Sequence record: MK327928.1 | Length of the DNA: 64,000 bases | Strand: one strand, 5' to 3' | Source of the DNA: Escherichia phage vB_EcoM_G2133 | Shown: piece after piece, positions 12,228-17,816 of the stretch | Layout: every line of letters begins with the position of its first letter | How positions within the stretch are numbered: the first letter of the stretch is position 1 | Made by a program: the position numbers and the translations under genes | The notes under the pieces: model-generated | What the model was told of the DNA's origin: nothing | Database searches by the model: none | What the model saw: only the letters and a program-made list of their open reading frames with translations

Positions 12228-12506
12228 TCAAAATGTAATTTCTAACCAATCACCATCACGCTGATCACTATTGACTTTAAAGCTGAATCCTTCTTTTCTC
12301 AGCCAATCACCAATTTCTTCAGTAATCAATTTATCACGAGCAATACAATAATAATTAAAATGTGTTTTACCTTGTTCAGCTGCTTTATTAGCAAGTTCCG
12401 AAAAATCTTTAATAAAACATTCTAGCTTAAACTGTTTACTTTTGAATGCTTTTTCGCGTAATTGATTAGCAAAAGATTCATTTTCATAAAGATCATACTG
12501 TTCCAT
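12228..12506 (-). CDS. hypothetical protein (position of T4 24.2)
   Basis: 92 aa ORF with ATG start; synteny only. Confidence 0.55.
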   Translation of the reverse strand: MEQYDLYENESFANQLREKAFKSKQFKLECFIKDFSELANKAAEQGKTHFNYYCIARDKLITEEIGDWLRKEGFSFKVNSDQRDGDWLEITF

Positions 12507-12708
12507 TTTTCACCTTTTTATTGATATGTCTTTTTCTATAGACAACTTTTTCTCGAGTTTCAAATTTATTCTTAGCAGTCATAGCTCGAGCCCATAATAC
12601 AGCCACTTCTTTTGCCTGTAAGTTTAATTCACGAGCAATTTCAATGAATGACTTTCCAGACTCATGAAGAGTAAACACCACAACCTCAGTTCTCATAATC
12701 AATCTCAT
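12493..12708 (-). CDS. hypothetical small protein with helix-turn-helix-like segment (position of T4 24.3)
   Basis: 71 aa; segment SFIEIARELNLQAKEVAVLWARAM resembles an HTH; alternative ATG 12 nt downstream. Confidence 0.5.
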   Translation of the reverse strand: MRLIMRTEVVVFTLHESGKSFIEIARELNLQAKEVAVLWARAMTAKNKFETREKVVYRKRHINKKVKNGTV

Positions 12709-12777
12709 GTTATCGAGTTGGTGCCATTATATACATCATTTTCTGATTATGTTTTGTGTGCTTTCAAAATGAAGAAA

Positions 12778-12791
12778 GGGGCCGAAGCCCC
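12778..12791 (-). terminator. stem-loop GGGGCUUCGGCCCC (transcript sense) after hoc
   Basis: exact 14-mer hairpin 7 nt downstream of hoc stop on minus strand. Confidence 0.55.
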
Positions 12792-12797
12792 TTATGA

Positions 12798-14216
12798 TTA
12801 TGGATAGGTATAGATGATACCAGTTTCTAAAGCAGTTTTATGAATGATGTATCCATTACGCGATTCTTGAACATCAACTTCTGGATAGTCTTTCATCATC
12901 TTCTGAAGAGTGTAACGATGCAGGTAGTATTTACTATCTGGATCTTCAGTTTTCCAATCTTTACCTTCTTCAGTCATTTTTTGGATTTCATCCATAACCC
13001 ACCAACCGCACCAGATATAAGCTGAGCTACGATGTGGAAGAGGATGAACATAAGGTAATTCACCTTCTGGTTCCGGAGCAACTTTATCAGTCACTTGAAC
13101 TTGACCTGTGGCTTTAACTGTTTTACTATCATAGTCAGTTGCTGTAACGACAGCAGTAACTTCAATAGTTTGACTTCCAACAGATGAGGTATCAACAGTA
13201 TATACGTTAGTTGACCCTTCCACAGGAGAAGAATCTTTCTTCCATGAGTAAGTAATTTGTGCTGCTTCAGGTGCGCCATTAACATTAGCAGTAAATGTAG
13301 CCGAAGCATCTTGCTGAACATTAATAGAAGGAGGAGTCAATGTAACCTGTGGATTCATTGTCTTCTTATTAACTGTCAATGATACTTCATTGGAAGTAAC
13401 TTCCTTTTCATTATAATTTTCTGCAGTTACTTGGGCTACGCATTTAATTCTTTTTACTCCACTTGTAGTTGGAGTATAGTTAAATGTAGAGTTAGTTTCT
13501 CCACCAACTTGTGAATCATCTACATACCACTGATACGTAGCAGACGCTCCGTCAGGTTGAGAAGCTAATGCAGCAGTAAATTGAACCGGGGTTCCAATTA
13601 CTCCAGCAGCAGGACTAGCAGGAGTTACTGCCAAGGTAGTTGTCTGTGTCTTTTTATTAACTGTCAATGATACTTCATTGGAAGTAACGCTCAGTGCATC
13701 ATAATCTGTCGCAGTTACTTGAGCTACACACTTAATTTTTTTAACTCCGCTTGTAGTAGGAGTATAATTGAATGTAGCAGAAGTTGCTTCGCTCACAGGA
13801 GAACCGTCAACGTACCATTGATACGTAGCAGATGCGCCCGATGGCTGTGAAGCTAAGGCAGCAGTAAATTCAACGGCTGTTCCGATTACTCCTTCTGGAG
13901 GACTATTAGGAGTTACAGCTAAGGTAGTTGTTTGTGTCTTATTTTGAACTGTGATAGTTGTACTAATTTCAGCTGTTTCAGCTTCAGAATCAGGAATAGT
14001 ATTTGTTGCAACTACCTTAATAGTCTTTTGACCAGCAGGTCCTTTTAATACATAATCAAAAGTTGCTGCTGATCCTTCTTGGGGAGCATTATCTACGCTC
14101 CAAGCATAGGTAATAGTTCCACCTCCAGTTTCACCACTGGGTGTAGCAGTAAACTGCTTGGTTTCATCAATAACCCCTGTTGGTGTTTTAGGAGTTATAT
14201 CAACTGTAAAAGCCAT
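12798..14216 (-). CDS. hoc: outer capsid decoration protein Hoc with four Ig-like domains
   Basis: 472 aa; repeated Ig-like modules (…TYQWYVD…FNYTPTTSGVK.IKCVAQVTA…); C-terminal Trp-rich capsid-binding region; synteny. T4 Hoc as recalled is 376 aa. Confidence 0.85.
   Translation of the reverse strand: MAFTVDITPKTPTGVIDETKQFTATPSGETGGGTITYAWSVDNAPQEGSAATFDYVLKGPAGQKTIKVVATNTIPDSEAETAEISTTITVQNKTQTTTLAVTPNSPPEGVIGTAVEFTAALASQPSGASATYQWYVDGSPVSEATSATFNYTPTTSGVKKIKCVAQVTATDYDALSVTSNEVSLTVNKKTQTTTLAVTPASPAAGVIGTPVQFTAALASQPDGASATYQWYVDDSQVGGETNSTFNYTPTTSGVKRIKCVAQVTAENYNEKEVTSNEVSLTVNKKTMNPQVTLTPPSINVQQDASATFTANVNGAPEAAQITYSWKKDSSPVEGSTNVYTVDTSSVGSQTIEVTAVVTATDYDSKTVKATGQVQVTDKVAPEPEGELPYVHPLPHRSSAYIWCGWWVMDEIQKMTEEGKDWKTEDPDSKYYLHRYTLQKMMKDYPEVDVQESRNGYIIHKTALETGIIYTYP
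13371..13943 (-). repeat. tandem duplication (2 x ~288 bp) encoding Hoc Ig-like domains 2 and 3
   Basis: two adjacent ~95-aa units about 79% identical at protein level (hand alignment); DNA repeats visible, e.g. TTATTAACTGTCAATGATACTTCATTGGAAGTAAC at ~13367 and ~13655. Confidence 0.8.
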
Positions 14217-14225
14217 AAGTTATCC

Positions 14226-14906
14226 TTATTTTAATGTTACGAAAGAAGAATTGCGTGTTTCACGAATTAAAACTGATCCGTCACGGTTAATGTAATAAAT
14301 TAAGCTAAATAATGTTTGGTGTGCAGAAGCATGCTCAAAACTAGTTGGGTGAGATTTCCAATCCGGAGTTTCAGCGATCCATTGATAAATCCACCAAGGA
14401 ACAGTACAGAATCCTGGATTTTTTCCAATCAGCTGAAGATTCGGACTAAAGTTTTCCGGAAGAGTAAATACAGACGGCTTTTCAGATTCAATAATCTCAG
14501 CTACAGCCTGTTCGAATTTTTCTTCAACAAAAGGAGTATCTTCAATCAAAACGTCAGTATTTTCAGGAATTTTATCCGTTTCTACTACTTCAATTTTAAT
14601 GTCAGATTTAACCGGAGAATCAATCAGAAGTGCTGCTTCTGGATTGACTTCTTCATCGTCATATTTTAACCCTTCTGCGGCATCAGCAGCATTGATTAAG
14701 TCTTTAATAGATAACCCATCAGTCTCTGGCATAGGTTCATTAGCGAGCTTCTGGAGGGCTTCTTCAATATCAATAACGATATTATCAAAAGATTTATTCT
14801 TTTTGACCTTTATACCAAACTGTTCAGCATATTCAGCTAATTTAGCTTTAGCTTCTTTATTATCATCAAGAGCCTTCAGCTCTGCAATATAATCTTTATC
14901 TATCAT
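14226..14906 (-). CDS. inh: inhibitor of prohead protease (Inh-like)
   Basis: 226 aa, position between hoc and seg gene as in T4; assignment by synteny and length. Confidence 0.7.
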   Translation of the reverse strand: MIDKDYIAELKALDDNKEAKAKLAEYAEQFGIKVKKNKSFDNIVIDIEEALQKLANEPMPETDGLSIKDLINAADAAEGLKYDDEEVNPEAALLIDSPVKSDIKIEVVETDKIPENTDVLIEDTPFVEEKFEQAVAEIIESEKPSVFTLPENFSPNLQLIGKNPGFCTVPWWIYQWIAETPDWKSHPTSFEHASAHQTLFSLIYYINRDGSVLIRETRNSSFVTLK

Positions 14907-14955: not shown

Positions 14956-15573
14956 ATGTACCACTTTGTATATGAAACAACAAATCTAATAAATGGTAAA
15001 AAGTATATAGGAAAACACTCTACTGATGACTTGAATGATGGTTACCTTGGTTCCGGTAAGGCAATTCAGCAGGCTATAAAGAAATATGGTGAAAACAATT
15101 TCTCTAGAACAATACTAAAAGAGTTTAAAACTTCCGAAGAAGCGTACATGTATGAAGAAGAAATTATAACTCCTGAACTAATAAAAAGCAAAAATTATTA
15201 TAATATGAAACCTGGTGGAATTGGTGGAATTGTTATGACTACAGAGGTTATAGCAAAGATGAAAGAATCTTCCGCTAAGAGATTTGAAAACTCACCGGGC
15301 ACGGTATTAGGTACAACTTGTTACACTAATGGAACTAAAAATATTTTTATTAAGCCTGGAGAACTTGTTCCAGAAGGATTTGTAAAAGGGATGGTTCATC
15401 CTAATAGAAAGTCCAGAAAAGGATGTAAAGTCAAACCGACTACCACAGGAACTTTTTGGATCAATAATGGCACAATAAATAAATTAATACAACCAGACGG
15501 TATTATTCCCGACGGATTTATTAAAGGTCGTCTCATGAAAAGAGATTCTAAAGGCAAATTTAGTAAGGCATAA
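14956..15573 (+). CDS. segE: GIY-YIG homing endonuclease (seg family)
   Basis: 205 aa; N-terminal GIY-YIG module YHFVYETTNLINGKKYIGKH...GYLGSG; location between hoc/inh and uvsW fits segE as I recall. Confidence 0.7.
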   Translation: MYHFVYETTNLINGKKYIGKHSTDDLNDGYLGSGKAIQQAIKKYGENNFSRTILKEFKTSEEAYMYEEEIITPELIKSKNYYNMKPGGIGGIVMTTEVIAKMKESSAKRFENSPGTVLGTTCYTNGTKNIFIKPGELVPEGFVKGMVHPNRKSRKGCKVKPTTTGTFWINNGTINKLIQPDGIIPDGFIKGRLMKRDSKGKFSKA

Positions 15574-17084: not shown

Positions 17085-17096
17085 GGGCTTCGGCCC
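17085..17096 (+). promoter_or_regulatory. stem-loop GGGCUUCGGCCC immediately after uvsW stop and before uvsW.1 SD
   Basis: hairpin directly abutting stop codon, followed by TTTGGAG and ATG 17110. Confidence 0.5.
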
Positions 17097-17109
17097 TTTG
17101 GAGAAAAAG

Positions 17110-17340
17110 ATGTTACTAGAATTTAAACAATTTCTTTATGAAGCTTCTATTGATGAATTTATGGGTAAAATTGCCTCTTGTCAAACATTAGAAGGTTTAG
17201 AAGAACTTGAAGCTTATTATAAGAAAAGAGTTAAAGAAACTGAATTAAAAGATACTGATGACATCTCTGTGAGAGATGCTTTGGCAGGAAAAAGAGCTGA
17301 ATTAGAAGATTCAGACGATGAAGTAGAAGAAAGCTTTTAA
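17110..17340 (+). CDS. uvsW.1: UvsW.1-like small acidic protein
   Basis: track ORF begins at TTG 17098; ATG 17110 with GGAG 6 nt upstream gives 76 aa. Confidence 0.7.
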   Translation: MLLEFKQFLYEASIDEFMGKIASCQTLEGLEELEAYYKKRVKETELKDTDDISVRDALAGKRAELEDSDDEVEESF

Positions 17341-17349
17341 ATTAAAAAA

Positions 17350-17372
17350 GGCCCAACCAAAAAGGAAGGGCC
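17350..17372 (-). terminator. terminator hairpin at end of uvsY transcription unit
   Basis: GGCCC...GGGCC stem with T-run on minus strand. Confidence 0.45.
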
Positions 17373-17395
17373 AAAACTATAGACTAAAGGTCACA

Positions 17396-17563
17396 CTATA
17401 GCAAAAGTTGTGTTTCATTTAATTGTTCTTCCGAACTTTCTGAAACTGGTAGTTCTTTAATGTAATTATAGCAAGGCCCAGGATGTACAGGACCTTTGTC
17501 TGTTTCAACAACCAATGCAGAATCGATTGGAGTTTTACAGACAACACAAATCTTATCTGACAT
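17396..17563 (-). CDS. small Cys-containing protein (position of T4 uvsY.-2), not in ORF track
   Basis: hand translation MSDKICVVCKTPIDSALVVETDKGPVHPGPCYNYIKELPVSESSEEQLNETQLLL (55 aa), CxxC...C pattern. Confidence 0.5.
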   Translation of the reverse strand: MSDKICVVCKTPIDSALVVETDKGPVHPGPCYNYIKELPVSESSEEQLNETQLLL

Positions 17564-17591
17564 GATTGTCTCCTCTAAATTATATATCTAT

Positions 17592-17816
17592 TTATATAAC
17601 TCTCATATGCATATCAATGCCCATATCTTTGGAATAAAAATATTCATCAAGATATCCAGCAAATTTTCCTTTAACATAAAGTACATCTTCACCGCATGGG
17701 TGGTCGGCCAGGATACGAATATCCTGACGCTTGAGATTATACTTTTTCATTAAGAATTGAATTTCCGTTTCGAATTCTTCTTCATAATTAAAAGCATCAT
17801 CAATGCTATATTTCAT
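17592..17816 (-). CDS. hypothetical protein (position of T4 uvsY.-1)
   Basis: 74 aa ORF, start overlaps uvsY stop (TAATG). Confidence 0.6.
   Translation of the reverse strand: MKYSIDDAFNYEEEFETEIQFLMKKYNLKRQDIRILADHPCGEDVLYVKGKFAGYLDEYFYSKDMGIDMHMRVI

Follow-up and report, generated by a model that had tools for sequence, protein, structure and literature searches.

A common four-Ig hoc allele with two apparently old copies of domain 2 in Escherichia phage vB_EcoM_G2133

Hoc (highly immunogenic outer capsid protein) is a decoration protein that forms an exposed capsid fibre; it serves phage display and the design of T4-based vaccines, and has been implicated in phage mucus adherence. In phage T4, according to PMC10385173, Hoc consists of three immunoglobulin (Ig)-like domains and a capsid-binding domain, makes a fibre of 180 angstroms, occupies the centre of every gp23 hexamer as a single molecule (155 per capsid) and is dispensable for infection. 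When the T4 capsid-binding domain was used as a BLAST query in the same study, 650 homologues were found, whose Ig strings ranged from one domain (PG7) to ten (Muldoon), and a 2026 paper described an extra Ig-like domain in the Hoc of Klebsiella phage PMBT63 (PMC13435897). Mucin glycans are a ligand of T4 Hoc, and replacing one residue of its third Ig-like domain (D3) alters the binding of fucosylated glycans as well as fitness in a mucus model (PMC9271167). The Hoc of phage phiPNJ-6 mediates binding to MUC2 (PMC13248984).

We analysed the hoc gene in a 64,000-nucleotide stretch of DNA from Escherichia phage vB_EcoM_G2133 (MK327928.1), referred to here as the window. The gene and the features immediately next to it are as follows.

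12798..14216, minus strand: hoc coding sequence, 472 amino acids plus stop (open reading frame; phmmer against T4 Hoc; DNA matches to phage hoc genes).
14226..14906, minus strand: inh, prohead protease inhibitor (open reading frame immediately upstream of hoc, placed like T4 inh).
12776..12793, minus strand: terminator-like hairpin directly downstream of hoc.

Homology and synteny identify this gene as the hoc of T4-like phages. A phmmer search against PDB sequences matched the encoded protein to the T4 Hoc chain 5vf3_Z with E = 7.6e-218, in two blocks: residues 1-103 aligned with T4 Hoc residues 1-103, and residues 189-472 aligned with T4 residues 93-376 (575 bits). According to this alignment, the window Hoc corresponds to T4 Hoc (376 aa) with one additional 96-aa unit resembling domain 2 (D2). 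The gene order in the window (rnlB, 24.2, 24.3 [DUF2774], hoc, inh, a segE-type GIY-YIG endonuclease gene and uvsW) was the same as that in T4, and hoc had inh and 24.3 on either side, on one strand, within the late head-gene region, again matching T4; inh is annotated at the matching position in PP01, ECO4 and RB3. The inh stop codon and the hoc start are 9 nt apart, and hoc is probably co-transcribed with inh. A search of the hoc strand for the T4 late promoter TATAAATA upstream of either gene gave no exact match, only AATAAATA upstream of inh. Downstream of hoc, the record of phage vB_EcoM_G2540-3 has a terminator annotated at the site equivalent to the hairpin in the window.

Structure prediction, profile searches and repeat detection divided the coding sequence into five segments.

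13941..14216, minus strand: Ig-like domain 1 (D1), amino acids 1-92 (AlphaFold beta-sandwich, pLDDT 84-93).
13653..13940, minus strand: D2 repeat unit 1, amino acids 93-188, "alpha" type (repeat detection and unit comparison).
13365..13652, minus strand: D2 repeat unit 2, amino acids 189-284, "beta" type (repeat detection; Pfam PKD, residues 197-267).
13083..13364, minus strand: Ig-like domain 3 (D3), about amino acids 285-378 (Pfam Ig_3 and I-set, residues 289-374; AlphaFold pLDDT 87-93).
12798..13082, minus strand: linker and C-terminal capsid-binding domain, about amino acids 379-472, plus stop (near-identical to T4 Hoc 283-376).

The AlphaFold model of the window Hoc, built from 30 homologues, contained four beta-sandwich domains at residues 1-91, 93-187, 189-283 and 285-376 (pLDDT 84-96), with low confidence in the capsid-binding domain at the C terminus (pLDDT 38-67). 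Pfam PKD, Ig_2, Ig_3 and I-set models matched within both D2 units and D3, and the top-ranking PDB entries found by Foldseek included four-Ig strings, namely Dscam1 Ig1-4 and ICAM-5 D1-D4. The capsid-binding domain was invariant in the alignment of 30 homologues and nearly identical to that of T4 over the C-terminal 94 residues, and a protein with such a domain would be expected to bind the hexamer centre as T4 Hoc does. Unit 2 is the counterpart of T4 Hoc domain 2 across most of its length. D1 was 36% identical to unit 1, and D3 was 40-42% identical to the D2 units; because D1, D2 and D3 are mutually 30-42% identical, the whole Ig string appears to have been built by still older duplications.

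Instead of the three-Ig layout of T4-type Hoc (376 aa), the window Hoc (472 aa) is thus predicted to consist of four Ig-like modules and a capsid-binding domain. A preliminary description, made from the DNA letters alone, had named the gene hoc at 472 aa, which the T4 Hoc match and the synteny with inh and 24.3 bear out. It had also described T4 Hoc as three Ig-like domains and a capsid-binding domain in 376 aa, in agreement with the T4 annotation and with PMC10385173, and had counted one extra Ig-like domain here, four in total. That count is the one returned by phmmer, which leaves a single 96-aa unit over, and by the four beta-sandwiches of the AlphaFold model.

Tandem Repeats Finder placed the additional unit in one tandem array at 13359-13952 (period 288, 2.1 copies, 79% matches, score 750), the sole tandem repeat with a score of at least 80 across the 64-kb window, and a separate repeat search likewise gave two 288-nt copies with 79% identity. 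Set in codon register, unit 1 covers gene nt 277-564 and unit 2 covers gene nt 565-852; the two are identical at 227 of 288 nt (78.8%) and 76 of 96 aa (79%), with 61 of 288 positions differing. The preliminary description, which had put the repeat at 13371-13943 and its modules of ~288 bp and ~79% identity at residues 92-186 and 188-282, was right to within a few bases or residues. When the gene was shuffled (n = 1000), the best window at an offset of 288 nt had 88.2 +/- 5.5 matches (maximum 106), versus 227 in the real gene, and the rest of hoc had an identity at this offset of 17-53% per 30 nt. Among the amino acid differences between the two units, 15 of 20 fell in predicted loops, with strand accounting for 55% of the unit. 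The ends of the units share an exact tract, as follows.

13654..13688, minus strand: copy of the 35-nt tract in unit 1, at its 3' end (checked as an exact match to 13366-13400).
13366..13400, minus strand: copy of the 35-nt tract in unit 2, at its 3' end (exact match to 13654-13688).

The motif ACAGTTnAnAAnAAGACA was present at all three domain boundaries, that is, between D1 and unit 1, between units 1 and 2, and between unit 2 and D3.

The four-Ig arrangement is widespread. Using megablast with the hoc gene against 50,697 phage records, we obtained 678 matching records, the best of which was vB_EcoM_G2540-3 (99.5%), followed by VEc20, NBG2, BF15 and PP01 (96-98%); 38 of the 40 top matches spanned 1419 nt. 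In a sample of 49 evenly spaced full-coverage records, which provides an estimate of the four-Ig share rather than a census, the gene was ~1419 nt long in 20 and ~1131 nt long in 28, the remaining record being a frameshifted oddity; T4, RB3, RB14 and T6 were among the ~1131-nt records. At the protein level, lengths among related phages fell into classes of 376, 472 and 568 aa, accounting for 79, 29 and 7 of the best 120 protein clusters, respectively, together with single clusters of 570, 567, 468, 379 and 371 aa. None of the best 120 clusters was longer than 570 aa, though longer arrays would score highest. Hoc proteins of 568-570 aa, such as those of UGKSEcP1 and UGKSEcP2, carry three D2 units and hence five Ig-like domains. 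Four-Ig alleles were found in several Tequatrovirus species and in one phage filed under Mosigvirus. The 1419-nt four-Ig hoc is a common, already sequenced variant.

Comparison with individual relatives placed the window within this variant. The Hoc of vB_EcoM_G2540-3 (QBO65586.1, annotated as "PKD domain protein") matches that of the window in length (1419 nt, 472 aa), in having an alpha unit followed by a beta unit and in its place in the genome, at 99.5% DNA identity, and those of VEc20, NBG2, BF15 and PP01 (472 aa) also agree in length, unit order and position, at 96-98%; the hoc genes of all five phages differ from that of the window by scattered substitutions only. The nearest genome over 25 kb was VEc20 (97.7%), not G2540-3. 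Since the nearest genome and the nearest hoc come from different phages, the window represents a different mosaic genome with essentially the same hoc allele. T4 Hoc (NP_049793.1, 376 aa; PDB 5vf3, 8t1x and others) is collinear with and nearly identical to the window Hoc in D1, D3 and the capsid-binding domain, whereas its D2, with 91% DNA identity to window unit 2, is a single unit where the window has a pair. The five-Ig Hoc proteins of UGKSEcP1 and UGKSEcP2 (568-570 aa) share with the window D1, D3, the C-terminal domain, the 96-aa units and an alpha-type first unit, but contain three D2 units that are mutually 73-79% identical and include a third type. Farther away, PMBT63 (Klebsiella, four Ig; Hoc only distantly related, at 46% identity to T4 Hoc), Muldoon (Serratia, 10 Ig) and PG7 (Enterobacter, one Ig) combine a conserved capsid-binding domain with a variable Ig string. 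In one distant T4-like contig (L007), the extra domain duplicates D3, not D2.

To date the two units relative to the phages that carry them, we compared 33 D2 units taken from 17 hoc genes: those of the window, T4, GenBank phages, contigs encoding five-Ig or 371-aa proteins, and IMG/VR loci. A scan of IMG/VR contigs gave 21 loci, few of them close, and further DNA came from GenBank phage records and protein-encoding contigs. We left out T6 (hoc region of 1132 nt, no CDS annotated) and BYEP02 (hoc split into 1320 + 180 nt) because of frameshifts. The D2 unit of ATK47 carries "AVSP" in place of "AVTP".

Window unit 1 was 85-99% identical to unit 1 of G2540-3, PP01, ECO4, AdolfPortmann, fPS-90, FP43 and an IMG/VR contig, and window unit 2 was 91-100% identical to unit 2 of these same four-Ig phages. 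By contrast, units 1 and 2 inside each four-Ig phage were only 75-80% identical, as were window unit 1 and any unit 2. In a neighbour-joining tree of the 33 units, all first units formed one clade (alpha) and later units fell into others (beta and the third type), so that grouping followed position, not phage; the position of the third type varied between five-Ig genes. Nei-Gojobori estimates for window unit 1 versus unit 2 were dS 0.71 and dN 0.14 (dN/dS 0.20), and paralogous units in six other four-Ig phages gave dS 0.84-1.6 and dN 0.107-0.156. Between phages, dS was 0.09-0.55 for orthologous units and 0.12-0.64 for the flanking domains (0.12-0.38 for most pairs). The dS between the window paralogues was thus two to five times that of orthologous hoc segments among Tequatrovirus phages. 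Because dS between paralogues exceeds that between orthologues and flanks, the split between alpha and beta units is placed before the divergence of the phages compared. The low dN/dS ratio points to both units being kept by purifying selection, and, judged by its divergence, the extra D2 copy is old, not recent.

Relatives also differed in the number and make-up of their D2 units. Genes with a single unit were of the alpha type in RB14 (93% to unit 1) and ATK47 (87%) and of the beta type in RB3 (95% to unit 2), T4 (91%) and HY03 (90%), and they nested among array units in both clades. In RB3, a beta unit directly follows a D1 whose DNA identity to that of the window is 98-100%. Protein clusters with 100% identical D1 and D3 plus C-terminal domain differed in having three (P0006), two (P0040/P0036) or one (P0119) D2 units. 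Across the phages compared, hoc was heavily mosaic. Over nt 1-86, the single unit of UTI-E4 (371 aa) matched unit 1 of five-Ig UGKSEcP1 with 1 mismatch, and over nt 100-288 it matched unit 3 of UGKSEcP1 with 4 mismatches, as would be expected if the first and last units of an array had crossed over. The flanks of UTI-E4 and UGKSEcP1 are not identical, which suggests segments shared in the population and no direct parent-offspring relation. An assembly error in UTI-E4 appears unlikely because exact identity between the units at the crossover spans only ~13 nt and the protein cluster has 12 member sequences. The D2 of T4 was likewise a mosaic, of beta type over nt 1-228 and of alpha type over nt 217-276, a product that would be expected of in-register allele exchange, not of simple deletion.

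These comparisons suggest that out-of-register homologous recombination may use the 35-nt identical tract as a substrate and that recombination at the unit ends and linker motif could have caused the changes in copy number. The variation in D2 loops looks like the exchange of whole segments between alleles, and recombinational re-sorting of D2 unit types is fairly well supported. The presence among relatives of hybrid units and of alleles with one, two or three units supports the view, also taken in the preliminary description, that the repeat is prone to expansion and contraction. The same description had called the duplication recent, and on this point it does not hold: dS is 0.71, the units are orthologous by position in other phages, and the arrangement occurs in a large fraction of relatives.

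Had domain 2 been duplicated in tandem recently within the phage's own lineage, one would expect what is seen in part: two neighbouring in-frame units of exactly 288 nt whose final 35 nt are identical. We nevertheless consider such a recent event very improbable. Divergence within the gene (79% identity, dS 0.71) exceeds that between phages (85-100%, dS 0.09-0.55), each unit being closer to its same-position counterpart in PP01, ECO4, AdolfPortmann, fPS-90 and FP43 than to its neighbour (75-80%), and the unit tree sorts by position, not phage. The four-Ig allele is also found in a large share of related genomes, and the other four-Ig records, with identities of 88-98% and diverse hosts and countries, are not one isolate. 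An assembly artefact, in which one D2 had been wrongly expanded to two, is an explanation we regard as even more remote: short reads can mis-assemble repeats, but the arrangement is identical in many independently sequenced phages, 61 of 288 positions differ, so that the units are not two copies of the same reads, and the frame is intact with both units apparently under purifying selection.

An unequal crossover between phages that carried diverged single D2 alleles, one alpha (RB14-like) and one beta (RB3-like), could also have produced the two-unit array, in place of a duplication inside a single genome whose copies then diverged where they lay. Such an event would account for the origin of the array only and is compatible with a common allele that holds two old copies. 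Nearly pure alpha and beta single-unit genes do exist (RB14, 93%; RB3, 95%), and the occurrence of ACAGTTnAnAAnAAGACA at the D1 end and the D2 end would provide a site for joining alpha to beta in frame. Moreover, the beta-head, alpha-tail D2 of T4 is not obtainable by simple deletion from an alpha-beta array, whereas in-register exchange can yield it. However, deletion from an array via the conserved unit ends would give the same single-unit alleles, and the nesting of single-unit genes among array units in both clades means that either direction fits. The 30-42% identity of D1, D2 and D3 further indicates that duplication within the gene happened earlier in Hoc. We hold an unequal crossover to be a possible origin of the array, though a rather doubtful one.

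The reading that we prefer, and that is very probably correct, is a common four-Ig hoc allele with two old, diverged copies of D2, in which D2 acts as a recombining cassette across the population. The alpha and beta D2 lineages predate the diversification of present-day Tequatrovirus genomes, and alleles with one, two or three D2 units coexist, their units being mosaics of alpha, beta and the third type. Out-of-register homologous recombination would add or remove exact 288-nt units, with the conserved unit ends and the linker DNA motif found at every domain boundary as its likely sites. By homology with T4, each hexamer of the major capsid protein would carry one Hoc molecule with its Ig string pointing outwards. 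An added Ig module of ~4 nm would lengthen the fibre from the ~18 nm of T4 to roughly 22 nm, and the four-Ig fibre would display one further set of variable loops. Given the mucin binding by T4 and phiPNJ-6 Hoc, domain number could plausibly influence adherence, aggregation or antigenicity.

Domain-number variation in Hoc is already published and the allele in the window has been deposited in public databases many times over, so current understanding is unchanged. The literature on Hoc that we searched states domain-number variation, and in it we found no description of D2 copy-number polymorphism or of alpha, beta and third-type cassettes within Tequatrovirus. The cassette pattern would be the sole mildly new element of this analysis and comes from a limited sample. 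For those engineering or comparing therapeutic coliphages, it is useful to know that domain 2 is present once, twice or three times in the Hoc of natural Tequatrovirus phages, that both D2 copies in this phage appear to be old and conserved, and that hoc can apparently gain or lose exact 288-nt units. More broadly, and tentatively, since we would place it somewhat short of an even chance, Hoc D2 may form a population-wide cassette system, in which at least three old unit types are constantly re-sorted by homologous recombination into arrays of one to three units, differing in order and mosaic make-up, and maintained by selection. If so, such a system would make the length of the Hoc fibre and its surface loops fast-evolving traits under selection, be it for mucus adherence or for immune escape.

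The window derives from a Tequatrovirus genome. In a search of a phage collection with window positions 1-25000, the nearest record over the 25 kb was phage VEc20, at 97.7% identity, and a near-identical full-length match to this segment was absent from the collection searched. Searched alone, the window hoc was closest to that of Escherichia phage vB_EcoM_G2540-3 (hereafter G2540-3), at 99.5%.

Comparison of the window hoc (12798-14216) with two other loci showed that the gene is strongly mosaic. Relative to phage RB3 (L029), the first Ig-like domain (D1) was 98-100% identical, with identity falling to 77-88% in the third (D3). Relative to an IMG/VR locus (L003), D1 was 83-97% identical, and identity was 100% from the middle of the second D2 unit across most of the remaining gene. 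Alignment with T4 also revealed a short hot spot in D3, at window positions ~13160-13230 (gene nt ~990-1060; nt 751-840 in the T4 frame). DNA identity between T4 and the window was only 58-75% within this hot spot, compared with 90-100% in its surroundings. It maps onto the final strands and loops of the domain, where T4 reads TATVTAADYNPVTVTKTGNVTVTA and the window TAVVTATDYDSKTVKATGQVQVTD.

Two genes near hoc were compared among relatives:

12493-12708, minus strand: homologue of gene 24.3 (DUF2774), 71 aa, from the mechanical ORF list

14956-15573, plus strand: segE-type GIY-YIG homing endonuclease gene, between inh and uvsW

The 24.3 product is annotated as 56 aa in T4, several relatives have a 67-aa version, and the greater length in the window probably reflects the choice of start codon. 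T4 likewise carries a segE-type endonuclease gene between inh and uvsW. Directly after uvsW, G2540-3 carries another endonuclease gene, of 693 nt; the window (17085-17815) instead holds an 80-aa ORF (17098-17340) and small minus-strand ORFs at this place. Thus, the window and G2540-3 differ in mobile endonuclease content beside a near-identical hoc.

Two phage records contained a broken hoc. In the T6 record (L031, MH550421.1), the hoc region spans 1132 nt without an annotated coding sequence, and its translation reached a stop after only 161 aa. In BYEP02 (L034, OR757454.1), hoc is divided into two ORFs of 1320 nt and 180 nt. Both are frameshifts, which may be either sequencing errors or the mark of genuinely hoc-defective phages.

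One protein cluster of 24 member sequences (P0045) represents a five-Ig Hoc of 567 aa with a different build. It comprises D1, one alpha-type D2 unit, two Ig-like domains that diverge much more strongly, a D3 that is also divergent and, finally, a standard capsid-binding domain, and looks like a hybrid of a Tequatrovirus hoc with a more distant one.

A distant Hoc (471 aa, ~47% identical) with four Ig-like domains was encoded at positions 1501-2907 of a 168.5-kb T4-like contig (L007, IMG/VR UViG_2974546015). In this protein, D3 has been duplicated rather than D2: residues 186-275 and 280-369 share 72 of 90 amino acids, with 76% identity between the copies at the DNA level. Related contigs encode Hoc proteins of 377 aa (L008) and 282 aa (L012). 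Given this D3-type duplication and these length variants, gain and loss of Ig-like domains in Hoc has also taken place independently in a second T4-like lineage.
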